DNA of 64,000 nucleotides from Squalus acanthias (taxonomy: Eukaryota): positions 129,706,001 through 129,770,000 of the forward strand of contig CM059431.1 in NCBI GenBank assembly GCA_030390025.1, given 5' to 3'. Shown here piece by piece: positions 8,414 through 62,433 of this stretch. Position 1 is the first letter of the stretch. Each line of letters begins with the position of its first letter. The translations under genes were made by a program, and so were the position numbers. The notes under the pieces are model-generated. The model did not search any database and was not told the origin of the DNA. It saw nothing but the letters and a program-made list of their open reading frames with translations.

Positions 8414-9376
8414 AGTTCTACACAATTTTAACATAACTTCTCTGTTTGGACTTATTTTCCAAGGAGTATGTTGCCTCCTTATTCTTCGTACCAAAATGCA
8501 GTTAACACTTGTCTATATTGAAATTAAGTTGCCAAATTACATGCCCATTCTGCAAGTTTATTAATGTCTTCTTGAATTTTGTCACAGTCCTCCTCAGGAC
8601 ATAAGACATAAGAAATAGGAGCAGGAGTAGGCTATTCGGCCCTTCGAGCCTGCTCTGCAATTCAATAAGATCATGGCTGATCTTCTTCCTCAACTCCACC
8701 TTCCCGCCCTATCCCCATATTCCTTGATTCCCTTAGTATCCAAAAATCTTTCGATCTCGGTCTTGAATATACTTAACGACTGCGCAACCACAGCTCTCTG
8801 GGGTCGAAATTCCAAAGATTCACAACCCTTTGAGTGAAGAGGTTTCTCTTTATCTCAGTCCTAAATGGTCGACCCCTTATTCTGAGACTGTGGCCTCTAG
8901 TTCTAGACTCCCCAGCCAGGGGAACTATCCTCCCAGCATCTACCCTGTCAAGCCCTTAAGAATTTTATATGTTTCAATGAGATCACCTCTCATCTTCTAA
9001 ACACTATGGAATATAGGCCTAGGGGGAAAAATTTGTTATCGACCATTCTGGGGCGCTAACATCGGCCGGCCGCAAATTTTAGCGCCCAGCGCAAATTAGC
9101 GCCGGCATCCATGAAATTCCCCTCCACCACCCCTGGAGGTGATTGGAGCATTAAATCAAGCGCTACACACTTCTTTAGGGTGCTAACGTCAGGGAACGGG
9201 ACGCTACCTCAGAGCGCTACTCAAGCTCTGGCGCTGTCAATTACCTAGTACTCAGACAGACTGGCGCCTTCCAGTTCTTAAAGGGGAGGTTCAATTATGC
9301 TGCACAGCCTCACCCTGATCATTGCTGCTTGTGACCTGGGCCTGCAAGGAGGTGCAATTCTTTAACCAGGAATCTC

Positions 9377-16084: not shown

Positions 16085-16729
16085 TCTGCCAACCCAAAAA
16101 TGACCCGTTTATTCCTACTCTGTTTTCTGTCCGTTAACCATTCCTCAATCCATGCCAATATATTATCCCTAATCCCATGAGCCCTAATTTTTTTGCGAAA
16201 ACCTTTTGTCTGGCACCTTTTCAAATGCTTTTTGAATATCCAAATACACTACATCCACTGGTCCCCCCTTATCTACCCTGCTAGTTACAACCTCAAAACT
16301 CTTAACAGATTTATCAAACACGGCTTCCTTTTCATAAATCAGTGTTGACTCTGCCCAATCATATTATAATTTTCTAAGTGCCCCATTACCAAGTCCCTAA
16401 TAATAGGTTCTAGCATTTTCCCTACTACTGAGGTCAGGCTAACTGGCCTACAGTTCCATTTTCTCTCTCCCTCCTTTCTTGATCAGCGGGGTTACGTTTG
16501 CTACCTCCCAATCCATGGGTATTCTGGCAGATCAAAACCAACGCATCCACCATCACTGTAGCCACCTCTTTTAAAACCCTAGGATGTAGGCCATCAGGTC
16601 CAGGGGATTGGTTGGCTTTCAGTCCCATTAATTTCTCCAGTACAATTTCTTTACTAATACCAATTTATATAAGTTCCTCATTTTCGCTGGTCCCTTGGTT
16701 CCCCACTATTTCCAAAATGTTATTAGTTT

Positions 16730-17040
16730 AGGATTGTTACAGGACTATGGGGAGTGTGTGGGGCATTGGCATTAGTTGGGATTGATCCAGGAACATGGGG
16801 AGACAGTTGGATTACTTTGGGGTTGATACAGGGCTATGGGGTGAGAGTGGGGCTGTGGAAATAGTTTTGGGTTGATACAGGGAATTGCAGAGAGTAGGGC
16901 AGTGGGATTAGTTTGGGATTGATACAGGGCTATAGGGAGAGCGTGGGGCAGTGGAATTAGTGTGCGATTGATATAGGGCTATGGGGAGAGAGTGGTGCCG
17001 TGGGATTAGCTTGAGATTGATACAGGGCCACGGTTAGAGA
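16730..17040 (+). repeat. Approximately 49-bp minisatellite (GTGGGATTAGTTTGGGATTGATACAGGGCTATGGGGAGAGAGTGGGGCA), left part
   Basis: About six imperfect tandem copies are visible. The array continues at 19430-19770 after a CR1 insertion. Confidence 0.85.
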
Positions 17041-18240
17041 ACATAAGAACATAAGAAATAGGAGCAGGAGTAGGCCAATTGGCCCCTCGAGCCTGCTCCG
17101 CCATTCAATAAGATCATGGCTGATCTGATCCTAACCGCCAATCAACTATCACAGAACCATCTCCTGAACCTAACAGAATTGGACACACGAAATAGGAGCA
17201 GAATCAGGCTACACGGCCCCTGGGCCCGCTACACTACCCACAGGGCCATGACCGAGCCGAACCTAGACTCATGTCCAAATTCCTGCCCGCTCCCCGTAAC
17301 CCTCAATTCCCTTTACTTCTAGGAAACTGTCTATTTCTGTTTTAAATTTATGTAATGATGTAGCTTCTACAGCTTTTTGGGGCAGCATATTTCATGGACC
17401 TACCACCCTCTGAGTGAAGTAGTTCCTTCTCATCTCAGTTTTGAAAGAGCAGCCCCTTATTCTAAGACTATGCCCCCTAGTTCTAGTTTCACCCATCATC
17501 GGGAACATCCTCCCCGCATCCAACCCCTTCACAATCTTATATGTTTCAATAAGATCGCCTCTCATTCTTCTGAACTCCAATGAGTAGAGTCCCAATCTAC
17601 CCAACCTCTCCTCATATGTCCATCCCCGGGATTAACCGAGTGAACCTTCTCTGTACTGCCGCGAGAGCAAGTATGTCTTTTCTTAAGTATGGACACCAAA
17701 ACTGTATGCATTATTCCAGGTGCGGTCTCACCAATACCTTGTACAACTGAAGCAATACCTCCCTATTTTTACATTCTATCCCCTTAGCAATGAAAGCCAA
17801 CATTCCATTGGCCTTCTTAATCACTTGCTGCACCTGCATACTAACCTTTTGAGTTTCGTGCACCAGGACCCCCAGATCCCTTTGTACTTCAGTACTTTCC
17901 AGTTTCTTGCCATTAATAACTTGCTGTACTATTTTTCCTGCCAAAGTGCATAACCTCACACTTTCCAGTATTGTATTCCATCTGCCAAATTTCTGCCCAC
18001 TTACTTAGCCTGTCTATGTCCCCTTGCAGATTTTTTATGTCCTCCTCACTCACTACTTTCCCTCCCATCTTAGTATCATCTGCAAACTTTGATATGTTAC
18101 ACTCGGTCCCCTCCTCCAAATCGTTAATATAGATTGTAAAGAGTTGGGGACCCAGCACTGACCCCTGCGGAACACCACTTGTTACTGTTTGCCAGTCTGA
18201 GAATGAACCATTTATCCCAACTCTCTGCCTTCTGCTAGAT

Positions 18241-18390
18241 ATGATGTGGAGATGCCGGCGTTGGACTGGGGTGGACAAAAATGAGAAGTCGCACAAACTA
18301 ACTTACCTGACGAAGGAGCGAACTGTTCCGAAAGCTTGTAAAATTAAATAAATCTGTTGGACTATAACCTGGTGTTGTGCAACTTCTCAT
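18241..18390 (+). mobile_element. 150-bp Penelope-like pLTR-only insertion (inverted arm, hammerhead ribozyme, AATAAA)
   Basis: Homologous to the pLTR at 51070-51197. Degenerate TSD TTCTGCTAGAT (18230-18240) / TTCTGTTAGCT (18391-18401). Confidence 0.85.
18303..18341 (+). ncRNA. Minimal type I hammerhead ribozyme
   Basis: TTAC-CTGACGA-A-GGAGC(GAACT)GTTCC-GAA-AGCT-T-GTAA. Catalytic core CUGANGA/GAAA, stem I TTAC/GTAA and palindromic stem III AGCT. Confidence 0.8.
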
Positions 18391-19429
18391 TTCTGTTAGC
18401 TAGCCAATCCTCTATCCATGCCAGAATATTACCCCCAATCCCGTGATTTTTTTATCTTAAGCAATAATCTTGTGTGGCACCTTGTCAAATGCCTTTTGGA
18501 AGTCTAAATACACCACATCCACTGGTTCCCCTTTATCCACCCTGTCTGTTACGTCCTCAAAGAACTCCAGCAAATTTGTCAAACATGACTTCCCCTTCAT
18601 AAAACCATGCTGACTTTGTCCTATTAAATTATGATTATCCAAATGTCCTGTTACTGTCTCCTTAATAATGGACTCCAAAATTTTACCTACCACAGATGTT
18701 AGGCTAACCGGTCTATAGTTTCCAGCCTTCTGTCTACTGCCCTTTTTAAATAAAGGTGTTACATTAGCAGTTTTCCAGTCTGCCGGGATCTTTGCTGAGT
18801 CCAGGGAGTTTTGGAAAATTACCAATGCATCCACAATCCCTACCGCCACTTCCCTCAAGACCCTAGGATGTAAGCCATCAGGTCCAGGTGATTTATCCAC
18901 CTTGAGTCCCATTATTTTACCGAGTACCACTTCCTTAGTGATTTTGATCGTGTTTAGCTCCTTCCCCCCTATAGCCCCCGGTTTGTCCAGTGTTGGGATA
19001 TTCTTAGTGTCCTCTACTGTAAAGACTAATACAAAATATTCAGTGTTTTTGCCATCTCCATATTTCCCACCATTAATTTCCCAGTCTCATCCTCTAAGGG
19101 ACCAACATTTACTTTAGCCACCCTTTTTCTTTTTATATAACTATAAAAACTCACTATCTGTTTTCATATTTTTTGCTAATTTACTTTCATAATCTATCTT
19201 CCCTTTCTTAAAATCAATCTTTGTTATTTTTTGCTGTCTTTTAAAGTTTTCCCAATCCTCTATCTCCCACTAGATTTGGCTACCTTATAAGCCCTTGTTT
19301 TTAGTCGAATACTATCCTTAATTTCTTTACTTAGCCACGGATGACTGTCTTTTCTTTCACACCCTTTTCTTCTCAGTGGAATATATATTTTTTGGAAGTT
19401 ATAAAATAACTCCTTAAATGTACACCACT

Positions 19430-19770
19430 GAACAGGGCAGTGGAATTAGTTTGGGATTGATACAGGGCTGTGGGGAGAGAGTGGGGCAGCGGCATTAGTT
19501 TGAGATTGATACAGGGCTATGGGGTGAAAGTAGGGCAGTGGGATTAGTTTGGGATTAATACAGGGCTATGGGGAGCGAGTGGGGCAGTGGGATTAGTTTT
19601 GGATTGATACAGGACTATGAAGAGGGGGCATTGGATTGTTACATGGCTATGGGGCGAGAGCAGGGCAGGGGATTACTTTGGGATTGATAGAGGGCTATGG
19701 GGTGAACGGGGAGTGGGATTAGTACAGGGCAATGTGGAGAGGGGTAGTGGGATTAGTTTGGGATTGTACC
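19430..19770 (+). repeat. Approximately 49-bp minisatellite, right part
   Basis: Same unit as 16730-17040. Confidence 0.85.
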
Positions 19771-43700: not shown

Positions 43701-43886
43701 AAGACAGGCAGGCAGTCGGACCGAACGACCCCCTCGACCGCCCACTGCCTGGACCAGTTGATGACCACTTTGGCCAGGCCCAGGAGCAGTCCTATGAGGA
43801 GGTCCCCTCCGCACCGGGTGACCAAAGATCAGGAGCGTAGGACTGAAGTGCAGCCAGAAATTGAGGAGCAGCCCCTTCAAATAGTG

Positions 43887-45213
43887 AGAAGTCGCACAAC
43901 ACCAGGTTATAGTCCAACAGTTTTATTTGAAATCACGAGCTTTCGGAGCGCTGCTCCTTCGTCAGGTAAAGTGAGGGAATACAAATCAGCAAAGCATATA
44001 TAGACAGAGAACAATGTGTCTCTGACTGCCCTCCATCACACCTCGGCAGAGATACAATCAGTCAGGAAGGCATTACATCAAAGACACAACAAAATACAGC
44101 TAAGACAATGAGGTGGGGTCACAGGGGGTCCAACGTGTCAAATGCTGCAGTCTGCAGTTAAGCTTTTTACTTTTTTTTAAAACTGGAAATCACATCTGTG
44201 AACAAGACAATGATGACTCGCGTCTGGATGACTCTACGTCATGTAGCGTGACATGAAACCAAGATCCCGGTTGAGGCCGTCCTCATGGGTGCGGAACTTG
44301 GCTATCAGTTTCTGCTCGATGATTTTGCGTTGTCGTGTGTCTCGAAGGCCACCTTGGAGAACGCTTACCCGCAGATCCGAGGCTGAATGTCCTTGACTGC
44401 TGAAGTGTTCCCCGACTGGGAGGTAACAATCCTGCCTGGCGATTGTTGCACGGTGTCCGTTCATACGTTGTCTCAGTGTCTGCATGGTCTCGCCGATGTA
44501 CCATGCTGCGGTGCATCCTTTCCTGCAACGTATGAGGTAGACAACGTTGGCCGAGTCACATGAGTATGTACCATGTACCTGGTGGGTAGTGTCCTCACGT
44601 GTGATGATGTTATCTGTGTTGATGATCTGGTATGTCTTGCAGAGGTTGCCGTGGCAGGGTTGTGTGGTGTCGTGGTCGCTGTTCTCCTGACAGCTGGGTA
44701 GTTTGCTGCGAACGATGGTACTTTTGAGGTTAGGCAGCTGCTTGAAGGCGAGTAGTGGAGGCGTGGGGATGGCCTTAGCAAGGTGTTCGTCGTCATCGTT
44801 CCAAATGCAAACCGGTTGCATCCTGTCTTTATCAGTGTTTACCGAGTATGATCCAATCTTATACTGAAATGTATATTCGACGCCATCTTGTCTGCCCACT
44901 GTATTTCTGGAAGCTTCTGCCACGATGCGCGGCGGCCATTTTACAGGCTTCTGTGTCCTTTATATCAGGACAGCATTTTGTTTAATAAAACTGATCAAAC
45001 GAATCTGCTTCTCTTATGTTATTTCGAATCGCGATAATTGCGAAACTTTACAGAGGTGTGATGGAGGGCAGTCAGAAACACATTGTTCTCTGTCGAAGGA
45101 GCAGCGCTCCGAAAGCTCGTGATTTCAAATAAAACTGTTGGACTATAACCTGGTCTTGTGCGACTTCTCATTTTTGTCCACCCCAGTCCAACACCGGCAT
45201 CTCCGCATCATGA
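43887..45213 (-). mobile_element. 5'-truncated Penelope-like element (GIY-YIG end, pLTR, unrelated filler, inverted pLTR arm)
   Basis: Segment 44234-44798 closely matches the 3' end of ORF 51197-53875. 13-bp TSD CCTTCAAATAGTG (43874-43886 / 45214-45226). Confidence 0.92.
43933..43969 (-). ncRNA. Minimal type I hammerhead ribozyme
   Basis: Minus strand TTAC-CTGACGA-A-GGAGC(AGC)GCTCC-GAA-AGCT-C-GTGA. Predicted cleavage after CUC. Confidence 0.8.
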
Positions 45214-45717
45214 CCTTCAAATAGTGGAAGAGGGGCTGCAACCTCTCACACTCCATGTATACATGGAACACGGACTCCTCCAGGCCACAGAAAAGGCAGG
45301 CAGCCTGGGAGTCCGTGAACCTACTTAAAACTTTATTGCACGGGACTGCTCCGTCCAGGCCAAGTCCCCAATAGATAAAGGGAGGACTCCTGCGTAGAGA
45401 GCCCTCCATTGGGGGCCTCCGCCGGACGGCAAGATGGTGTGCCAAGGCATGTCCGGACTGCAGACGAGGATGGCAAAATGGAGGGTGTGCAAGAGTAGCC
45501 CGTACAGGAAACCCCACCGTGCAGAATGAAAAGGCACAGAGGGCATTTCCCGGAGACAGCTCTGAACTTTGTGTAAAACACTCCTTATCAGTAATTGTTT
45601 GCCTATATTAAATCAATGCAAAACTAATTTTACACCAGAGTATAAACAACATATAGAATGCCTTTTTGTTTGTATTTCAGCCCAAAAAAAATACATAAAA
45701 AATAACAATGCATTGTT

Positions 45718-47715: not shown

Positions 47716-50281
47716 TATTAAACCAGGCATGCGCGTTTCCCGGCCCTATTAAAGGGTGCGGGTCTGATGATGTCATTGATAACTCATTTCCAGCGCCCAT
47801 ATTTAAAGCAGCCTTGCACACAACTCATTTGAAGGTGAGTAAAGGAGTGTGGAAGGAGCATTGATAAGGTTGGATTTATTGTGCAAAGTGATAAATATGA
47901 ATACCCAAAGGCAGAGGGCTGCACCCCACTTTACAGATGCCTCACTGCATATTCTGGTCAAGGCAGTAAGAGCACGCAGGGAGGTCCTCTTCCCAGCAGA
48001 TGGGCGCAAGAGACCTCCCCAAGAGACCAAAAGGGCCTGGCTGGAAATAGCAGAGGAGGTCAGCAGCAGGGAGGTCATGAGGAGGACCTGGATACAGTGC
48101 AGGGAGAGTTTCAATGGTCTGCTGAGGTCAGGAAAGGTGAGTGCAATGCCACACTCACCTTCATCCTGATGTGCCTGTCACCACATCCCCATCACTCTGC
48201 CTTCCCAAGCCTACTCCTGCACATCATTACTCACACCAACATACCGTCCCGGTCCATCCATCGCTCTCTCTCTATGTACATACAGTACTCACATTCCCAT
48301 CTGACTAATCACCCCTCACACTCATCCTCATCCTAATGCAATCATAGCAAGTAACACCACAGAAGGAGGCCATTTGGCATTGCCACCCCACTCCCTCATA
48401 GTCACCCTCTACAGATGTAACCCATCCATTCCTTACGCTCATTCCATCACTCTCACTCAAACTTCCCTTCTTTCCCTCCTTGCAGGAGCAAAGAGCCTAG
48501 AACAACAGAGAGAGGGAGAGAACTGGAGGTGGCCCTTCAGTCTTCGCACACCTAACAGCAGCAGAGGAGGGGGCTCTGGAGATCTCGGGAGCTCGAGATG
48601 CTGGCGGTGGGAGATGGACATCCCAGCAACCTGGTGACAGAATCACGTCTCATAAAGCCACATGGCATACAACAGTCACTCATATGGTGACTGATGTCAG
48701 CAGCCAGTGAAATGTCACAGAGTCATAGTCAGAGAGTTATACAGCACAGAAAGAGGCCCTTCGGCCCATCGTGTCCACGCCGGCCATCAAGCCCTGTCTA
48801 TTCTAATCCCATTTTCCAGCACTTGGTCCGTAGCCTTGTATGCTATGGCGTTTCAAGTGCTCATCTAAATGCTTCTTGAATGTTGTGAGGGTTCCTGCCT
48901 CTACCACTCTTTCAGGCAGTGAGTTCCAGATTCCAACCACCCTCTGGGTGAAAAAGTTTTTCCTCAAATCCCCTCTAAACCTCCTGCCCCTTACCTTGAA
49001 ACTATGCCCCCTTGTTAGTGACCCCTCTACTAAGGGGAAAAGGTCCTTTCCATCTACCCTATCTATGCCCCTCATAATTATGTACACCTCAATCAGGTCC
49101 CCCCTCAGCCTTCTCTGCTCTAAGGAAAACAACCCCAGCCTGTCCAGTCTCTCTTCATAGCTGAAACGCTCCAGCCCAGCTAACATCCTGGTGAATCTCC
49201 TCTACACCCTCTCTAATGCAATCACCTCCTTCCTATACTGTGGCGACCAGAACTGCACACAGTATTCCAGCTGTGGCCTAAGTAGCGTTTTGTACAGCTC
49301 CATCATAACCTCCCTGCTCTTATATTCTATGCCTCGGCTAATGAAGGTAAGTATCCCATATGCCTTTTTAACCACCATATCTACCTGTCCTGCTGCCTTC
49401 AGGGATCTATGTACATGCACACCAAGGTCCCTCTGATCCTCTGTCCTTCCTAGGGTCCTACTATTCATTGTGTATTCCCTTGCCTTGTTAGTCCTCCCAA
49501 AATGCATCACCTCACACTTTTCAGGGTTAAATTCTATTTGCCACTGTTCTGCCCATCGGATCAACCGGTCTATATCGTCCTGTACCCTGAGGCTTCCCTC
49601 CTCGCTGTTTACCACCCCACCAATTTTCGTGTCATCTGCGAACTTACTGATCATACCTCCTACATTCATATCTAAATCATTAATGTACACTACAAACAGC
49701 AAAGGACCCAGCACCGATCCCTGCGGTACACCACTGGACACAGGCTTCCAGTCACAAAAACAACCTTCGACCATCACCCTCTGCCTCCTGCCACTAAGCC
49801 AATTTTGGATCCAATGTGCCAAGTTGCCCTGGATCCCATGGGATCTTACCTTCTTGACCAGTCTCCCATGTGGGACTTTGTCAAAAGCCTTACTGAAGTC
49901 CATGTAGACCACATCAACTTCACTACCCTCATCCACACACCTAGTCACCCCCTCGAAAAATTCAATCAAATTGGTCAGACATGATCTCCCCCTGACAAAG
50001 CCATGCTGACTATCCTTGATTAATCCTTGCCTCTCCAAGTGGAGACTAATTCTGTCCCTCAGAATTTTTTCCAGTAATTTCCCTACCACTGATGTTAGGC
50101 TCACTGGCCTATAATTCCCTGGTTTATCCCTACTACCCTTCTTGAATAATGGTACTACGTTAGCTGTTCTCCAGTCCTCTGGCACCTCCCCTGTGATGCG
50201 GAGATGCCGGTGTTGGACTGGGGTGGACAAAATTGAGAGGTCGCACAACACCAGGTTATAGTCCAACAGTTTTATTTGAAA

Positions 50282-50319
50282 TCACAAGCTTTCGGAACTA
50301 TCGCTCCTTCCTCAGGTGA
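50282..50319 (-). ncRNA. Minimal hammerhead ribozyme (copy in the inverted pLTR)
   Basis: Reverse complement of 51072-51109. Confidence 0.8.
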
Positions 50320-51071
50320 AGTAAATTGGATACAGAATCGTCAGAGCATATATAGATGGAAAAAAAAGCATGTGTACTTTACAATTGCAGACCAATAAAT
50401 TAAATCATCCTGACTATCTGCCGAGGTGTGATAAAGTTAATTAAGTCAGCCAGGAAGGTACCACATCAAAAGACATAGCAAGATACAACTGAGACAATGA
50501 GGTGAAGTCGCAGGGGTTCTAACGTGTCAAAAGCTGCCGTCTGTATGTAAAACGAAAAGCTTTAAAAAGCAGTCAAGGACATTCAGCCTCGGATCTGCGG
50601 GTAAGCGTTCTCCAAGGCAACCTTAGAAACACACGACAACGCAAAATCATCGAGCAGAAACTGATAGCCAAGTTCTGCACTCATGAAGACGGTCTCAATC
50701 GGGATCTTGGGTTTATGTCACGATACATGACGTGATCCGGACTCGAGTCGTCGTTAGCTTGTTCACAGATGTGATTCCCAGTAAAAAAGTAAAAATTTTC
50801 CCAGTAAAAAAGTAAAAATTTTTTTTTAAAGCTTTTCGTTTTACATACAGACGGCAGCTTTTGACACGTTAGAACCCCTGCGACTTCACCTCATTGTCTC
50901 AGTTGTATCTTGCTATGTCTTTTGATGTGGTACCTTCCTGGCTGACTTAATTAACTTTATCACACCTCGGCAGATAGTCAGGATGATTTAATTTATTGGT
51001 CTGCAATTGTAAAGTACACATGCTTTTTTTTCCATCTATATATGCTCTGACGATTCTGTATCCAATTTACT

Positions 51072-51109
51072 TCACCTGAGGAAGGAGCGATAGTTCCGAA
51101 AGCTTGTGA
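51072..51109 (+). ncRNA. Minimal type I hammerhead ribozyme (5' pLTR)
   Basis: TCAC-CTGAGGA-A-GGAGC(GATA)GTTCC-GAA-AGCT-T-GTGA. Preceded by TATATA (about 51037) and followed by AATAAA (51115-51120). Confidence 0.82.
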
Positions 51110-51196
51110 TTTCAAATAAAACTGTTGGACTATAACCTGGTGTTGTGCGACCTCTCAATTTTGTCCACCCCAGTCCAACACCGGCATCTCCGCATC

Positions 51197-53875
51197 ATGA
51201 CCACTATCGACACCACAAACTGCCGGCTCAAAGTGGAGAGAATCGCCAAGAAGATCGCGCATATCGACACCGACATCAAGTATCTACAGAGATGCAAGAA
51301 AGCAGACAAGATCCCGAAAGGACTACAGATCACGAACCCACTCAAGTCGACATACAACACAGACTACGCTGAGAGACTCTGCCGTCGTACCTCTCGCACA
51401 CTCCTCAACCATCTCGTACACCAGCTCTACAGCAAACGCCACAACCTCGAAACCAAGATAGAGTCCATGCTCTCAGCCTGTGCTCAGGACACAGCAGACC
51501 AGTTACGAGACACCACCAAACAGACGAGGCAACGGAACTACGCTGCCTACATGCGCATCAAGAACAGGAAGCTTGAGAAACTCGGCATCACCACCAGCAG
51601 CAACCAAGCCTCCCCCGGTACCACGGCTGCAACCACAGGGAAGTCCATCGTCAACTTGTCCGACCATACCCTTCAACCAGACGAAATCGAAGTTCTCGCC
51701 CTAGGGCTCAAGTTCTGCCCAACCACCAAAATGGACCCCATCGGTCTCGCGGCAGACACGGAGGAATTCATCAGGAGAATGAGGCTCCGGGAATACTTCC
51801 ACAAATCCCAAGATGTCAGCAACAAACCCAATGAGACAATCAATGATCCAGAACAGCAGACAGAGGGACTCGCAGTGCAGCAACCGAAGAAAAAAGAGTC
51901 AAACTGGACCCCTCCGGAGGGTCGCTGCCCCAAGCTTGACATGTATGCTCAAGCTGTCAGGAAATGCATCAACGCCAGATTCATCAGCCGCACTCACAAG
52001 ACAGTCCAGAATGTCACCCGAGCACAACGCAACGCCATCCACGCTCTCAAGACCAACCGCAACATTGTCATCAAACCAGCGGACAAAGGAGGAGCCATCG
52101 TCATACAGAACAGAACGGACTATTGTAAAGAAGCATACCGACAACTGGACAACCAGGAACACTACAGACAGCTACCCGCAGATCCGACCAAAGAACACAC
52201 CCGCCAACTCAATAGACTGATCAAGACCTTCGATCCAGACCTTCAAAACATCCTACGCGCTCTCATCCCACGTACTCCCCGCGTGGGAGACTTCTACTGC
52301 CTCCCAAAGATACACAAAGCCAACACACCCGGACGTCCTATCGTATCAGGCAATGGAACCCTGTGTGAGAACCTCTCTGGATACGTCGAGGGCATTCTGA
52401 AACCCATCGTACAGGGAACCCCCAGCTTCTGTCGCGACACTACAGACTTCTTACAGAAACTCAGCACCCACGGACCAGTTGAACCAGGAACACTCCTTGC
52501 CACGATGGACGTATCGGCACTCTACACCAGTATCCCCCACGATGACGGCATCGCTGCAACAGCCTCAGTACTCAACATCAACAACAGCCAATCTCCAGAC
52601 GCCATCCTACAACTCATCCGCTTCATCCTTGACCACAATGTCTTCACCTTCGACAACCATTTTTTTACCCAAACACACGGAACAGCCATGGGGACCAAAT
52701 TCGCACCCCAATACGCCAACATCTTCATGCACAAGTTCGAGCAAGACTTCTTCGCTGCACAGGACCTCCAGCCAACGCTGTACACCAGATACATCGACGA
52801 CATTTTCTTCCTTTGGACCCATGGCGAAGGATCACTGAAAAGACTACACGATAACATAAACAAGTTCCATCCCACCATCAAACTCACCATGGACTACTCC
52901 TCAGAATCGGTCTCATTCCTGGACACACGAATCTCCATCAAAGACGGACACCTCAGCACTTCACTCTACCGCAAGCCCACGGACAACCTCACGATGCTCC
53001 ACTTCTCCAGCTTCCACCCTAACCATGTTAAAGAAGCCATCCCCTATGGACAAGCCCTGCGAATACACAGGATCTGCTCAGACGAGGAGGAACGCGATGG
53101 ACACCTACGGACGCTGAAAAACGCCCTCGTAAGAACGGGATATGACGCTCGACTCATCGATCGACAGTTCCGACGGGCCACAGCGAAAAATCGCATAGAC
53201 CTCCTCAGAAGGCAAACACGGGACACAACCAACAGGGTACCCTACGTCGTCCAGTACTTCCCCGGAGCGGAGAAACTACGACATGTTCTTCGCAGCCTTC
53301 AACATGTCATCGATGACGACAAACACCTCGCTAAGGCCATCCCCACGCCTCCACTACTTGCCTTCAAACAGCCGCCTAACCTCAGAAGTACCATCGTTCG
53401 CAGCAAATTACCCAGCTTTCAGGATAACAGCGACCACGACACCACACAACCCTGCCATGGCAAACTCTGCAAGACATGCCAGATCATCAACACAGATACC
53501 ACCATCACACGTGAGGACACTACCCACCAGGTACATGGTACATACTCATGTGACTCGGCCAACGTTGTCTACCTCATACGTTGCAGGAAAGAATGCACCG
53601 CGGCATGGTACATCGGCGAGACCATGCAGACACTGAGACAACGTATGAACGAGCACCGCGCAACAATCGCCAGGCAGGATTGTTACCTCCCAGTCGGGGA
53701 ACACTTCAGCAGTCAAGGACATTCAGCCTCGGATCTGCGGGTAAGCGTTCTCCAAGGCAACCTTAGAAACACACGACAACGCAAAATCATCGAGCAGAAA
53801 CTGATAGCCAAGTTCTGCACTCATGAAGACGGTCTCAATCGGGATCTTGGGTTTATGTCACGATACATGACGTGA
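51197..53875 (+). CDS. Penelope-like reverse transcriptase plus GIY-YIG endonuclease (892 aa from the first ATG)
   Basis: Uninterrupted ORF. RT motifs IKPADKGG, FYCLPKIHK, GRPIVS, MDVSALYTSIP, GTAMG and RYIDD. Cys linker PCHGKLCKTC. Endonuclease motifs VVYLIRC...WYIGET...RMNEH...E...GLN. Confidence 0.96.
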   Translation: MTTIDTTNCRLKVERIAKKIAHIDTDIKYLQRCKKADKIPKGLQITNPLKSTYNTDYAERLCRRTSRTLLNHLVHQLYSKRHNLETKIESMLSACAQDTADQLRDTTKQTRQRNYAAYMRIKNRKLEKLGITTSSNQASPGTTAATTGKSIVNLSDHTLQPDEIEVLALGLKFCPTTKMDPIGLAADTEEFIRRMRLREYFHKSQDVSNKPNETINDPEQQTEGLAVQQPKKKESNWTPPEGRCPKLDMYAQAVRKCINARFISRTHKTVQNVTRAQRNAIHALKTNRNIVIKPADKGGAIVIQNRTDYCKEAYRQLDNQEHYRQLPADPTKEHTRQLNRLIKTFDPDLQNILRALIPRTPRVGDFYCLPKIHKANTPGRPIVSGNGTLCENLSGYVEGILKPIVQGTPSFCRDTTDFLQKLSTHGPVEPGTLLATMDVSALYTSIPHDDGIAATASVLNINNSQSPDAILQLIRFILDHNVFTFDNHFFTQTHGTAMGTKFAPQYANIFMHKFEQDFFAAQDLQPTLYTRYIDDIFFLWTHGEGSLKRLHDNINKFHPTIKLTMDYSSESVSFLDTRISIKDGHLSTSLYRKPTDNLTMLHFSSFHPNHVKEAIPYGQALRIHRICSDEEERDGHLRTLKNALVRTGYDARLIDRQFRRATAKNRIDLLRRQTRDTTNRVPYVVQYFPGAEKLRHVLRSLQHVIDDDKHLAKAIPTPPLLAFKQPPNLRSTIVRSKLPSFQDNSDHDTTQPCHGKLCKTCQIINTDTTITREDTTHQVHGTYSCDSANVVYLIRCRKECTAAWYIGETMQTLRQRMNEHRATIARQDCYLPVGEHFSSQGHSASDLRVSVLQGNLRNTRQRKIIEQKLIAKFCTHEDGLNRDLGFMSRYMT

Positions 53876-54211
53876 TCCGGACTCGAGTCGTCGTTAGCTT
53901 GTTCACAGATGTGATTCCCAGTAAAAAAGTAAAAATTTTCCCAGTAAAAAAGTAAAATTTTTTTTTTAAAGCTTTTCGTTTTACATACAGACGGCAGCTT
54001 TTGACACGTTAGAACCCCTGCGACTTCACCTCATTGTCTCAGTTGTATCTTGCTATGTCTTTTGATGTGGTACCTTCCTGGCTGACTTAATTAACTTTAT
54101 CACACCTCGGCAGATAGTCAGGATGATTTAATTTATTGGTCTGCAATTGTAAAGTACACATGCTTTTTTTTCCATCTATATATGCTCTGACGATTCTGTA
54201 TCCAATTTACT

Positions 54212-54249
54212 TCACCTGAGGAAGGAGCGATAGTTCCGAAAGCTTGTGA
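54212..54249 (+). ncRNA. Minimal type I hammerhead ribozyme (3' pLTR)
   Basis: Identical to 51072-51109, offset by 3140 bp. Confidence 0.82.
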
Positions 54250-57023
54250 TTTCAAATAAAACTGTTGGACTATAACCTGGTGTTGTGCGACCTCTCAATT
54301 TTGACCTCCCCTGTGGCCAGAGATGTTCTGAAAATTTGTGTCAGAGCCTCTGTAATCTCCTCCCTTGCCTCACACAGCAGCCTGGGATACATCTCGTCTG
54401 GGCCTGGGGATTTATCCACTTTTAAGCCCGCTAAAACCGCTAGTACCTCCTCCCTCTCAATACTAATTTGTTCAAGTATATCACAATCCCCCTGTCTGAT
54501 TTCTATGCCTACATCGTCCTTCTCCATCGTGAACACAGATGCAAAATATTCATTTAAAACCCCATCTACATCTTCTGGCTCTACACACAGATTGCCACTT
54601 TGGTCCCTAATGGGTCCTACTCTTTCCCTGGTTACCCTCTTGCCCTTAATATACTTATAAAACACCTTGGGATTTTCCTTTATTTTGCCCGCCAGTGTTA
54701 TTTCATGCCCCCTCTTCGCTCTCCTAATTTCTTTTTTAAGTACCCCCCTGCACTTTCTATACTCCTCTAGGGCTTCCACTGTTTTTAGTCCTTTGTATCT
54801 GCCAAAAGCCTCCCTTTTTTTCCTAATCCATTCTCATATATCCCTTGACATCCAGGGTTCCCTGGGCTTGTTGGTCCCACCCTTCACCTTTACGGGAACA
54901 TGTTGCCGTTGTACTATCTCTATTTCCTTTCTGAAAGACTCCCACTGCTCTGATGTGGATTTTCCTACAAGTAGCTGATCCCAGTCCACTTTGGCCAGAT
55001 CCTGCCTTATCATATTAAAATCGGCCTTCCCCCAATTTAGAACCTTTATTTCCGGTCCATCTTTGTCCTTTTCCATGACTACCTTAAATCTCACCGAATT
55101 ATGGTCACTGTCACCAAAATGCTCCCCTACTAACACTTCTACCACTTGCCCGGCTACATTCCCTAGAATTAGGTCCAGTACCACCCCCTCTCTTGTAGGA
55201 CTTTCTACATGCTGGCTCAAAAAGCTCTCCTGGATGCACTTTAAGAATTCCGCACCCTCTAAGCCTTTCACACTCTGACTATCCCAGTTAATATTGGGGA
55301 AGTTGAAATCCCCTACTATTATTACCCTATTATTTCTACACTTCTGAGATTTGCCTACATATCTGTTCCTCTATCTCCCCCTGACTGTTTGGGGGCCTAT
55401 AGTACACTCCCAGCAAAGTGCTTGCCCTCTTTTTGTTTTGAAGTTCTACACATATGGCCTCATTAGAGGAACCTGCTAAGATATCATCCCTCCTTACAGC
55501 AGCAATTGACTCCTTGATTAATATTGCGACACCCCCTCCTCTTTTACACCCACCTCTGTCTCGCCTGAAGATTCTATACCCCGGAATATTGAGCTGCCAG
55601 TCCTGCCCCTCCCTCAACCATGTCTCTGTGACAGCAACAATATCATACTCCCATGTGTTCATCAACACCTTCAATTCATCTGCCTTACTCGCAAGACTCT
55701 TTGCATTAAAATAAATGTCATCCAGCCTTGCCATACTCCCTTGTGCCGTTACATATTTGCTCTGCCTTCCAGGCTGACTTGTTTATTCCTCTATATTTGG
55801 CTGTGCATCACCCCCTACTATAGCTCCACTCCGTATCCCATCCCCCTGCCAAGTTAGTTTAAACCCCCCCCAACAGTACTAGCAAACCTCCCCGCAAGGA
55901 TGTTGGTCCCATTCCGGTTCAGGTGCAACCCATCCGACTTGTACAGGTCCCACCTTCCCCAGAAGCAGACCCAGTGATCCAGGAAACTAAAGCCCTCCCT
56001 CCTGCACCAACTCTTTAGCCACGCATTCATCTGCTCTATCCTCCTATTCCTATACTCACTAGCACGTGGCACCGGGAGTAATCCAGAGATTACAACCTTT
56101 GAGGTCTTGCTTTTTAATCTGCTACCTAGCTCCCTAAATTCTTGTTCAGGACCTCATCCCTCTTTCTACCCATGTCGTTGGTACCAATGTGAACCACGAC
56201 CTCTGACTGTTCGCCCTCCCCCTTCAGAATGCCCTGCAGCCATTCGGTGACATCCTTGACCCTGGCATCGGGGAGGCAACATACCATCCTGGCGTCACGT
56301 CTGCGGCCACAGAAACGTCTATCTGTTCCCCTTACGATAGAATCCCCTATCACTATTGCTCTCCCATTCTTTTCCTCCCCTCCTGTGCAGCTGAGCCACT
56401 CGTAGTGCCATGGACTTGGCTTTTGCTGCATTCCCCTGAGAAACCATCTCCCCCATCAGTATCCAAAACGGAAAATCTGTCGGAGAGGGAGATGGACCCA
56501 GGGGACTCCTGCACTACCTTCCTAGTTCTTTTACTCTGTCTGGTGGTCACCCATTCCCTGTCTGCCTGTGCACTCTTTACCTGCGGTGTGACCACCTTGT
56601 TAAATGTGCTATCCACGAAGATCTCAGCTTCGCGGATTCTCCACAGTGACTCCAGCCGCAGCTCCAGCTCCGAAACGCGGATTTCGAGTAGCTGCAGCTG
56701 GAGACACTTCCTGCACATGTGTTCGCCCTGGACATCTAAAGTGTCCCTGACTTCCAACATAGCACAGGAGGAGCACTCCATGCTGCCGAGCTGCCCTGCC
56801 ATGTCCTACCCTGAATTTACTCCTTTTAAATTAAAGAATATTAAATACACTAGGGACCTTACTTCCCTTTAAACACTACTTCCTCTAAACTGGAGACCTT
56901 ACTTTTACTTTAATGACTGGAATGTAGAAAGACTGTAGAAATACTCACCGCTGGTTCTCTGTCCCCTCTTGTGCAGCTTTTTAGCTCCTGCTCTCCTGGA
57001 AGCTGACAAAGATGGAAAAAGGA

Positions 57024-59011: not shown

Positions 59012-59667
59012 ATAACAACAGAAAATGCTGGAAACACTCAGCAGTTCAGGCAGCATCCGTGGAGAGAGAAACAGAGTTAACGTTTCAGGTCTGTGACCCT
59101 TTGTCTCTGGAAAAAGTTAGAGATATAACAGATTTTAAGCAGGTGCAGAGGCAGAAAGGGAGGAGGGGAGGAAAGAACAAAAGGAACGGTCTGTGATTGG
59201 GTGGAAGGCAGGAGTGGTTAAATGTTGCAAATGGGGATGGCAAAATCATCAACTACTGCCACCTGAAAAAATAGGGGCAGAAGTTGTGGTCTGAAATTGT
59301 TGAACTCAATGTTGAGTCCAGACGGCTGTAAAGTGCCTATTCGAAAGATGAGGTGCTGTTCCTCGAGCTTACGTTGAGCTTCATTGGAACAGTGTAAGAG
59401 GCTGAGGACAGAGAGGTCAGAGTGGGAGTGGAGCGGAGAATTAAAGTGACAAGCGACCGGAAGCTCGGGGTCACCCTTACGTACTGAACGGAGGTGTTCC
59501 GCAAAGCGGTCACCCAATCTGCGTTTGGGTCTCCCCAATGTAGAGGAGACCGCATCGTGAGCAGCGAATACAGTATACTAAATTGCAAAATATACAAGTA
59601 AATCACTGTTTCACCTGGAAGGAGTGTTGAGGAAAAAGGAAGACATATCGGAAGCACGAGTATGGAA
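59012..59667 (-). mobile_element. 3' fragment of a second Penelope-like family (GIY-YIG C-terminus plus pLTR)
   Basis: RRLGDRFAEHLRS...PVACHFNS...RKLEEQHLIFRIGTLQPSGLN. 15-bp TSD GATGATTCTGGAGAA (58997-59011 / 59668-59682). Confidence 0.88.
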
Positions 59668-59774: not shown

Positions 59775-61380
59775 GGGGGAAAAGATCAGTTGATTGGTGA
59801 GACCGCACCTGGAATACTGCATACAGTTTTGGTGTCCTTACTTAAGGAAAGACATCCTTGCTCTCGAGGCAGTGCAAAAAAGGTTCACTCGGTTAATCCC
59901 GGGGATGAAGGGGTGGTCATATGAGGAGAGGTTGGGTAGATTGGGACTCTACTCATTGGAGTTCAGAAGAATGAGAGGCGATCTTATTGAAACATATAAG
60001 ATTGTGAAGGGGTTGGATCGGGTGGATGCGGGGAGGATGTTCCCGATGACGGGTGAGACGAGAACTAGGGGACATAGTCTTAGAATAAGGGGCTGCTCTT
60101 TCAAAACTGAGATGAGGAGGAACTACTTCACTCAGAGGGTGGTAGGTCCATGGAATATGCTGCCACAAAAAGCTGTAGAAGCTACAACATTAATTAAATT
60201 TAAAACAGAAATAGACAGTTTCCTAGAAGTAAAGGGCATTAAGGGTTACGGGGAGCGGGCAGGAATTTGGACATGAGTCTAGGTTCGGATCGGTCATGGC
60301 CCTGTGGGTAGTGGAGCGGGCCCAGGGACTGTGTAGCCTGATTCTGCTCCTATTTCGTGTGTGCAATTCTGTTAGATGCAGGAGATGGTTCTGTGATAGA
60401 TAGTAGATTGGCGGTTAGGATCAGATCAGCCATGATCTTATTGAATGGCGGAGCAGGCTCGAGGGGCCGATTGGCCTACTCCTGCTCCTATTTCTTATGT
60501 TCTTATGTTCTTATATTAGCGCCTCCCGTTAGCGCCCTAAGAGGGCGCTAACGGGGAGCAAAGCAACTAGCGCCCGGGCGCAGCAATGTTTGCGCCGCTG
60601 GCGAAATTGACCAGACATTTTGCGGCGGCGCTAAACACTACCGCCACAATCTCCTGCGCCCGCAGATCATGACGTCAGTCGAGCGTGGAACGCCCCGGTA
60701 GCGCCCCAGACCGGATATTCAGTGGTGCCCCCTGCCTTTCCGCCTGCCGCTAGCAACGACAGGTAGAGTGGAACGTTTTGCAGTCAGGAAGGGACTGGGG
60801 GAGCACTATTTAAAGGCGGCCGCTTCCTGCCTTTTTTTGTCGGCGACATTTTTGCACCACGCATTCTGAGAGAGAGAGAGACTTCTGGAGAGATTAAACG
60901 CTGTGTAAAGGAGTTTTGCATACTGAGCAGCACTTTGCAGGTTCATTTTGATTTGACCTTGCATCAATTTAGAATAGACTATGGGGGCTGCACTCTGAGC
61001 TCTTTCCCTGGGCCTCTCCATTGTTCTTTCCAGCAGAATTGATGTACAGGTATCTTCAGGCCGAGATTCAAGGCTGCAATGAGCAGGGTGTGGCTGGAGA
61101 GCAAGATCGGCCGTCCCCTTTAAGAACTGGCCGGCGCCAGTGTGTCTGTGTTGCATTGCTAACTGACATCACATGAGCTTCGCCAGCGCTCTGAGGTAGC
61201 GTCTTGCTCCTCGGCGTTAGCGCCTTAAGAGAGGTGTGTAGCATCTGATTTAGCGCTCCAATCACCTCCGGGGCGATAGAAGCTAAGTTTGCAGTCGGAG
61301 GTGATAATTAGCGCAGGCGTTAAACTTTGCGCCAGTTCGATATTTGCGCCCCAAATGGGGCGATACCGAATTTCTCCCCC
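59775..61380. mobile_element. Harbinger MITE copy 1, with a CR1 3' fragment (about 59795-60513, plus strand) inserted next to its left TIR
   Basis: Termini GGGGGAAAAGATCAGT and GAATTTCTCCCCC, TSD ATA/ATA. Body 60517-61380 aligns with 61560-62433. Confidence 0.85.
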
Positions 61381-61540: not shown

Positions 61541-62433
61541 GGGGGAAAAATTCAGTTGGTTGCGCCTCCCGTTAGCGCCTTAAGAGGGCGCTAATGGGGC
61601 GCAAAGCAGCTAGCGCCCGGGCGCGGCGAAGTTTGCGCCGCTCGCGAAATTAACTAGACATTTTGCGGCGGCGCTAAACACTACCGCCACGATCTCCTGA
61701 GCCGGCAGATCATGACGTCACTCGAGTGTGCAACGCCCCGGTATCGCCCCGGAGCGGATATTGAGTGGCGCCCCCTGCCTTACCGCCTGACGCTAGCAAC
61801 GACAGGTTGAGGGGAGCGTTCTGCAGTTATGAAGGGAAAGGGGGAGCGCTATTTAAAGGTGACCGCTTCCTGCCTTTTATTGTTGGTGCCATTTTTGAAC
61901 TACGCATTCTGAGAGAGAGAGGGAGAGACTTCTGGAGAGATTCAACGTTGTGTGAAGGAGTTTAGGGTACTGAGCAGCACTTTGCAGGTTCATTTTGATT
62001 TTCCATTCCTTGTATTGATTTAGCAGAGACTGTGGGGGCTGCACTCTGAGCTCTTTGCCTGGTACTCTCCATTGTTCTTTCCAGCACATTTGATGTGCAA
62101 GTCTCTCCAGGCCGAGATTCAAGGCTGCAATGAGTAGGATGTGGATGGAAAGCAAGATTAACCATCCCTTTTAAGAACTGGCCCGTGCCATTGTGTGTGT
62201 GTTCCATTGCTGACTGACAGTACATGAGCTTCGCCAGCGCTCTGAGTTAGCGCCTCACTCCTCGGCCTTTGCGCCTTAAGACAGGTGTGCAGCGCCTGAT
62301 TTAGCGCTCCAATCACCTCCAGGGGCGTTAAAAGTGAAGTTTCCAGTCAGTGGCGATAATTAGCGCCAGGCGCTAATTTTTGCGCCCGGACGATATTTGC
62401 GCCCCAAACGGGGCGCGACTGAATTTTTCCCCC
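61541..62433. mobile_element. Harbinger MITE copy 2 (893 bp)
   Basis: Perfect 16-bp TIR GGGGGAAAAATTCAGT and 3-bp TSD TGA/TGA. Same terminus as the element at 9022. Confidence 0.92.

Follow-up and report, generated by a model that had tools for sequence, protein, structure and literature searches.

Penelope-like elements (PLEs) are the closest mobile relatives of telomerase. In the canonical endonuclease-bearing (EN+) unit, as passages of PMC3846280 and PMC8557442 describe it, pLTRs are inverted relative to each other and a tail is present at one end. Minimal hammerheads are known from metazoan PLE pLTRs (in parts of PMC4209133), and a passage of PMC8557442 gives the linker motif CX2-5CxxC as common to Neptune and Nematis. 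The protein of PAc, a Poseidon element of Anolis carolinensis, cuts and extends both strands in vitro, and its reverse transcription begins at two internal start sites with the tail as the sequence between them (PMC11167929). Within the ORF, the main start occupies +111-118 and the ribozyme cuts at +26, which places them 85-92 nt apart; the protein is a predicted dimer, no difference in start site was seen between strands, and initiation takes place at sites non-homologous to the target (PMC11167929). For L1, dual priming on two RNAs is only postulated in the section of PMC2837659 that deals with it. We found no paper on Neptune Penelope-like elements in sharks and none stating a twin-priming model for PLE pLTRs, older subscription papers lying outside the search. 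To our knowledge, the building of inverted and tailed PLE insertions has seen no full reconstitution so far.

Three insertions of a Neptune-type element

The window analyzed here is a 64,000-nt stretch of Squalus acanthias DNA and consists of LINE-rich animal sequence. Insertions, named A, B and C, were located by BLAST of element C against the window, and insertion C provides the reference coordinates, with the ATG at 51197. The following features were delimited.

18230-18238 (left) and 18391-18399 (right), forward strand: TSD of insertion A, 9 bp with 1 mismatch, inside a CR1-type LINE
18241-18296, reverse strand: A short arm with tail, 56 nt, outer end at reference 51198
18297-18390, forward strand: A long arm without tail, about 92 nt, outer end at reference 51158-51160
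43874-43886 (left) and 45214-45226 (right), forward strand: TSD of insertion B, 13 bp, exact
43887-44798, reverse strand: B long arm without tail, 912 nt, holding the GIY-YIG end of the ORF (94% to C) and 3′ UTR
44799-45052, no strand assigned: B inner-junction filler, 254 bp of non-PLE DNA
45053-45213, forward strand: B short arm with tail, 161 nt, outer end at reference 51200-51202
50196-54303: whole unit of insertion C, with an exact 12-bp TSD (50184-50195 and 54304-54315), inside a CR1-type LINE
50196-50568, reverse strand: C short arm with tail, 373 nt, 100% reverse complement of 50823-51195
50568-51196, forward strand: C upstream partial tandem copy, with the last 55 ORF codons, 3′ UTR/pLTR, hammerhead and tail
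51068-51110, forward strand: minimal hammerhead motif, core 51076-51101, cut inferred after 51105 from the consensus
51156-51202, forward strand: PLE tail, bounded by the untailed ends (51155-51163) on one side and by the tailed ends (51195-51202) on the other
51197-53875, forward strand: open ORF of 892 aa, with DKG at 296, YIDD at 532 (RT), a CX4CxxC linker at 753 and a GIY-YIG-type endonuclease with YIG at 805
53876-54303, forward strand: C downstream pLTR, ending untailed at reference 51163

A homologue search with the 892-aa ORF returned shark proteins as the nearest named homologues, with 81-94% identity over parts of the query. Pfam RVT_1 scored above cut-off in this ORF; for GIY-YIG the query itself gave no Pfam match, while many of its homologues carry PF01541, and motif reading found the C-terminal VVY...YIG endonuclease motif together with C/H residues. 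The attributes of EN+ PLEs were all encountered: a single ORF combining RT with a C-terminal GIY-YIG endonuclease, pLTRs arising from a partial tandem, direct or inverted, in insertion C, short TSDs, a minimal hammerhead motif in the pLTR in our own motif scan, and, as the optional 30-40 bp tail, an extension of 32-45 nt at one end of all three insertions. The CX2-5CxxC signature of Neptune is present in the RT-EN linker as C-X4-C-X2-C at residue 753. Judged by these motifs, the element with the ORF at 51197-53875 is an endonuclease-bearing PLE, of Neptune type by the linker motif only. Elsewhere in the window, another and distant PLE family is represented at 59308-59623 (reverse strand) by a degraded GIY-YIG piece with about 40-46% identity to homologues.

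Insertion C is a very young Neptune-type element with an open frame and joints resolved to the base. Its two tandem segments, 50568-51163 and 53708-54303, are 99.8% identical; the long arm measures 3,736 nt and has its outer end at reference 51163, the tailed end lies at 51195 and reaches 51197 with 2 ambiguous nt, and the arms share 1 nt at the inner junction. In insertion A, the TSD is backed by alignment with sister CR1 copies, and the unit occupies 18239/18241-18390, with two extra nucleotides (18239-18240) outside the tailed end. On either side of the region with insertion A lies an array of repeats with a unit length of 47-49 bp (16720-17089 and 19385-19705), the two being 2.4 kb apart. 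Other repeats in the window include LINE 3′ ends at 17038-17735 and 59793-60511, which are 93% identical in opposite orientation and belong to a fairly young family, and two GC-rich 870-bp elements (60519-61380 and 61562-62433), 86% identical, with a short LINE piece between them, part of which pair matches 9021-9344 in inverted orientation.

The long arm of insertion B carries a hammerhead at 43965-43941 and has its outer end at reference 51155-51157, while the short arm has lost the 5′ half of its hammerhead to a 42-nt deletion. Between B and C the ORF sequences diverge by 6% and the 3′ UTRs by far more; the B arms are identical to each other at 75/76 positions and to C at 70-71/76. The filler at the inner junction of B has a CpG o/e of 1.27 vs 0.42 for the window and no second copy within the window, and contains two motifs that we take to be YY1-like; a captured promoter or 5′ UTR is one possible origin. 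Read on the minus strand, the filler contributes an in-frame ATG to the endonuclease domain, giving an ORF of 195 aa (44234-44821). Since the targets differ and the sequences of B and C diverge, the three insertions are independent events.

Outer ends, tail and hammerhead

Each of the three insertions consists of a head-to-head pair of arms within one TSD, and both outer junctions are of the 3′ type. The short arms have their outer ends at reference 51195-51202, the start codon, and the long arms at 51155-51163, a spread of 9 nt, in 3/3 insertions each; the gap from tailed to untailed end is 32-45 nt across A, B and C. For ends placed uniformly over a 600-nt pLTR, the chance of such clustering is about 3e-4 for the tailed and about 7e-4 for the untailed position. 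The tail is on the short arm in all three insertions (chance P 0.016), and every unit has one tailed and one untailed end (3/3, chance P 0.125). Two ambiguous nt are present at four of the six outer junctions (P about 0.007 under a simple null). The segment between the two end positions is the published 30-40 bp PLE tail, and A, B and C conform to the usual head-to-head insertion unit of a PLE, here of Neptune type.

The original prediction had described three insertions with different targets, TSDs and lengths, each with the outer end of an inverted arm at the ORF start codon and with varying inner breakpoints, and all of this is borne out, with TSDs of 9, 13 and 12 bp, divergence between B and C, outer ends at the start codon in 3/3, and inner junctions ranging from the 1 shared nt of C to the deletion and 254 bp filler of B. 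The opposite end does lie earlier in the pLTR, but the distance of 35-40 nt given for it has to be widened to the measured gap. The claim that each insertion begins with an inverted arm fits A and C but not B, in which the main body is on the minus strand and the tailed arm is at the right. The two positions were said to be fixed, which describes the sharp tailed end but not the looser untailed one. As for novelty, inverted tailed pLTRs and two start sites had already been published (PMC3846280, PMC8557442, PMC11167929); our finding is a clean example, with end positions already explained by published work.

The ATG was also considered as a general landmark and rejected, because the position of the start site relative to the ORF differs in anole and rotifer PLEs. 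The match between the ATG and the tailed end is specific to this family, and the landmark in common with the anole element is the ribozyme region, since the spacing from start site to cut is 85-92 nt in the anole and the tailed end lies a similar 90-97 nt past the predicted cut here.

Our scan found five copies of the hammerhead motif in the window, every one inside PLE arms of insertions A, B and C; those of insertion C include the copies at 54216 (+) and 50315 (-). Stems I and II form in RNA folding, and Rfam returned no match to the hammerhead region. The pLTR motif at 51068-51110 is a predicted minimal hammerhead. Arms that start at the ribozyme cut were considered and are unsupported: 0/6 arms begin at the inferred cut site, and in the long arm of A the hammerhead core (18307) follows about 10 nt after the start. 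A search for a structural landmark in the RNA fold of the tail region found none, with a stability about that of shuffled sequences (z 0.0 to -1.4); a 9-bp pairing of 51123-51131 with 51172-51180 appears in folds, not above shuffles.

The ends were further compared in four public runs (X1, X3, X17 and X21, of 23) on the 598-nt reference 50823-51420. These runs cover organisms A and D, X17 having another organism label, and X1 or X3 may be the source of the window. From bin 51163-51182 to bin 51203-51222 the summed contig depth, which is not equivalent to copy number, drops 39x in X1, 8x in X3 and about 6,700x in X17. Among the 20 of 470 rows listed, loose ends with long and mutually unlike flanks were found at 51198 in 68 contigs (X3), at 51199 in 63 contigs (X1) and 54 contigs (X3), at 51203 in 19 contigs (X3), and within 51198-51203 in 3/9 reads of X21. 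Because of this depth drop and the pile of loose ends at 51198-51203, we conclude that the tailed end is fixed across many copies. The depth ratio across the untailed end is 0.88 (X1), 0.30 (X3) and 0.46 (X17), and the same 20 of 470 rows hold a single untailed loose end, at 51155 in X21 (3/9 reads), and none for X1 or X3. The expectation that junctions outside the window would fall at the same two positions thus stands for the tailed end, sharp at 51198-51203, but less so for the untailed end, which is looser. The joints table of the runs has 2 joints, and the two ends of one insertion cannot be linked in such data.

A rise in depth at about 51095-51122 in the public runs coincides with subfamily divergence, and loose ends are present at 51088 and 51095. 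In every run the last 110 nt, from hammerhead to tail (51083-51202), are covered far more deeply than the remaining pLTR, with a difference of about 65-fold in X17. This cis-acting pLTR end is conserved across subfamilies, and many genomic copies may be very short.

The exact tail pattern had 0 matches in metagenome and viral contigs. Inverted arms were also sought at 126 loci of related PLEs, taken from metagenomes and from animal-like contigs filed in bacterial bins; neither these loci nor the 3 matches from each of two follow-up searches yielded a readable combination of one tailed and one untailed end within a TSD. Loci L081-L126 are PLE-like RT genes, many with hammerhead motifs, on contigs in bacterial genome bins (for example L082-L087, L094-L095 and L115-L121); these contigs are most likely misbinned animal host DNA. 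In one PLE-like copy (L094:3755-6986) the endonuclease part is inverted relative to the RT part, and the breaks carry short inverted repeats.

Probable dual priming and its alternatives

We consider it probable (roughly 65%) that each side of the cut contributes a 3′ overhang as primer for reverse transcription on pLTR-end RNA and that the resulting cDNAs are joined. This dual priming is suggested by the geometry of the units, their TSDs, the shared subfamily of the arms and the sharp tailed end, together with the biochemistry of the anole element. The GIY-YIG endonuclease would make a staggered cut, 9-13 nt apart to judge from the TSDs, that leaves a 3′ overhang on each side. Each 3′-OH would then prime reverse transcription on sense pLTR-end RNA at internal sites downstream of the hammerhead: a sharp one 90-97 nt past the predicted ribozyme cut, with the tail included, and a looser one about 50-58 nt past it. 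The two cDNAs would grow toward each other, halt at variable points and be joined, sometimes with template jumps, which could account for the deletion and filler of B. As the two arms are copies of one sequence, the pLTR end would have to be available twice as template, on separate RNAs or as a pair of pLTRs within a single tandem transcript.

Paired ambiguous nucleotides at four of six outer junctions are what would be expected if primer ends pair with the RNA. Random inversion, against which the original prediction had argued, does not describe these insertions: there are two preferred positions, one on each side of a staggered break, and both ends are of the RNA-3′ type. The arms within one unit share their subfamily, as seen in the near-identity of the B arms to each other and the 100% match of the C short arm.

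An alternative is a single priming, after which the tailed cDNA would fold back and serve as its own template to form an inverted dimer, and the endonuclease would cut this intermediate at preferred places in the pLTR end and so trim the tail off one side. Passages of PMC8557442 do ascribe the tail to endonuclease resolution of an intermediate, parts of PMC3846280 take junction palindromes as self-priming, and the D. virilis endonuclease requires the tail for recognition (cited in PMC11167929); the C short arm is also 100% identical to a long-arm stretch beginning 254 nt away from the junction. Neither A nor B has a tail on its long arm, which excludes simple copying of the short arm from a finished long arm and would call for the extra trimming step. 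Inner junctions, moreover, are not hairpin palindromes (1 shared nt and a 254-nt offset in C, 254 bp of filler in B), and the start sites of anole reverse transcription in vitro already yield both ends (PMC11167929). We regard fold-back with trimming as rather unlikely.

The lengths of the short arms bear on a narrower possibility, classical twin priming on one tandem RNA, where the downstream pLTR would give the long arm and the upstream pLTR, near the 5′ end of the RNA, the short tailed arm. This would account for the tail on the short arm and for an arm length that stays within one pLTR (56, 161 and 373 nt); the upstream pLTR always runs into the ATG, and the tandem layout exists in C. The C long arm, however, already holds the upstream pLTR, so that more than two units would be required, and the internal sites of L1 are variable in the part of PMC2837659 concerned while the tailed site here is sharp. 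We find this account improbable; it is a sub-case of dual priming that sequence cannot separate from priming on two RNAs.

That both arms lie within a single TSD in 3/3 insertions, with no inner TSD seen, and that the arms of one unit share subfamily variants, speaks against two independent insertions per unit, one landing in the end of the other, and against a later rearrangement. A PLE endonuclease is able to cleave its own pLTR, as with the anole target (PMC11167929), and B carries foreign filler, but we consider such an origin very improbable.

Returning to dual priming, the two junctions of a unit differ in how far the target resembles the RNA. At untailed junctions the TSD, read in the sense of the element, matches the RNA beyond the junction at 14/27 positions (permutation P 0.003), in a score that drops ambiguous bases and the first mismatch and that was noticed post hoc. 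Tailed junctions match at 6/28 target positions (untailed vs tailed, Fisher P 0.019). The untailed match is driven by C (8/11), A and B alone giving 6/16 (P 0.19). Such a match would be in keeping with an overhang annealed to the tail's near part, or with an endonuclease that prefers tail-like DNA, and the latter could also be accommodated by fold-back with trimming. One tentative and rather doubtful extension is that the two primings are obligatorily unequal: a far-tail site set by the protein and independent of the target would give the short arm, while an overhang of 9-13 nt pairing imperfectly with near-tail RNA would give the long arm. If so, the tail would be a landing pad for the second primer, and the presence of a tail on one end only, the wobble of the untailed end and the homing of PLEs into their own pLTR to form tandems would be explained. 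Proof of such unequal site use genome-wide would provide a model of the second-strand step in PLE integration that is open to direct testing.

Comparison with known systems

The motif in the pLTR is of the same type as the metazoan PLE hammerheads described in parts of PMC4209133; arms in the window never begin at its inferred cut. The likeness to PAc lies in two start sites bounding the tail, use of both strands and an upstream hammerhead, here read from genomic ends. PAc is a Poseidon element with start sites inside the ORF, whereas the element described here has a Neptune-type linker and a start at the ATG. Targets of PAc are AT-rich with no target homology, whereas the three targets here are not AT-rich and there is a hint of pairing at the untailed end. 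A rule of one site per side would rest on the 3/3 insertions of this window, the PAc study having seen no strand difference. In Adineta vaga Pen2a the pLTR plus tail spans 22 codons according to the passage in PMC3846280, whereas here the tail stops at the ATG. The passages on Pen2a and the PLE unit in PMC3846280 and PMC8557442 contain no statement on a tail in the shorter arm or on one end of each kind, both of which were found here in 3/3 insertions.

With L1 twin or dual priming, as treated in part of PMC2837659, the insertions share inverted fragments within one TSD (3/3), a variable inner joint and, in our reading, priming from both overhangs. In L1 twin priming, cDNA synthesis starts at the poly(A) tail and at an internal site that varies, and copies different parts of one RNA (same part of PMC2837659), whereas the arms here overlap in sequence, both copying the same pLTR end, and have both ends at preferred sites with no poly(A). 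The twin-priming-like mechanism that was originally proposed may thus be retained insofar as both sides would prime, but because both arms copy the same sequence, the geometry of A, B and C resembles L1 dual priming more than it does classical twin priming.
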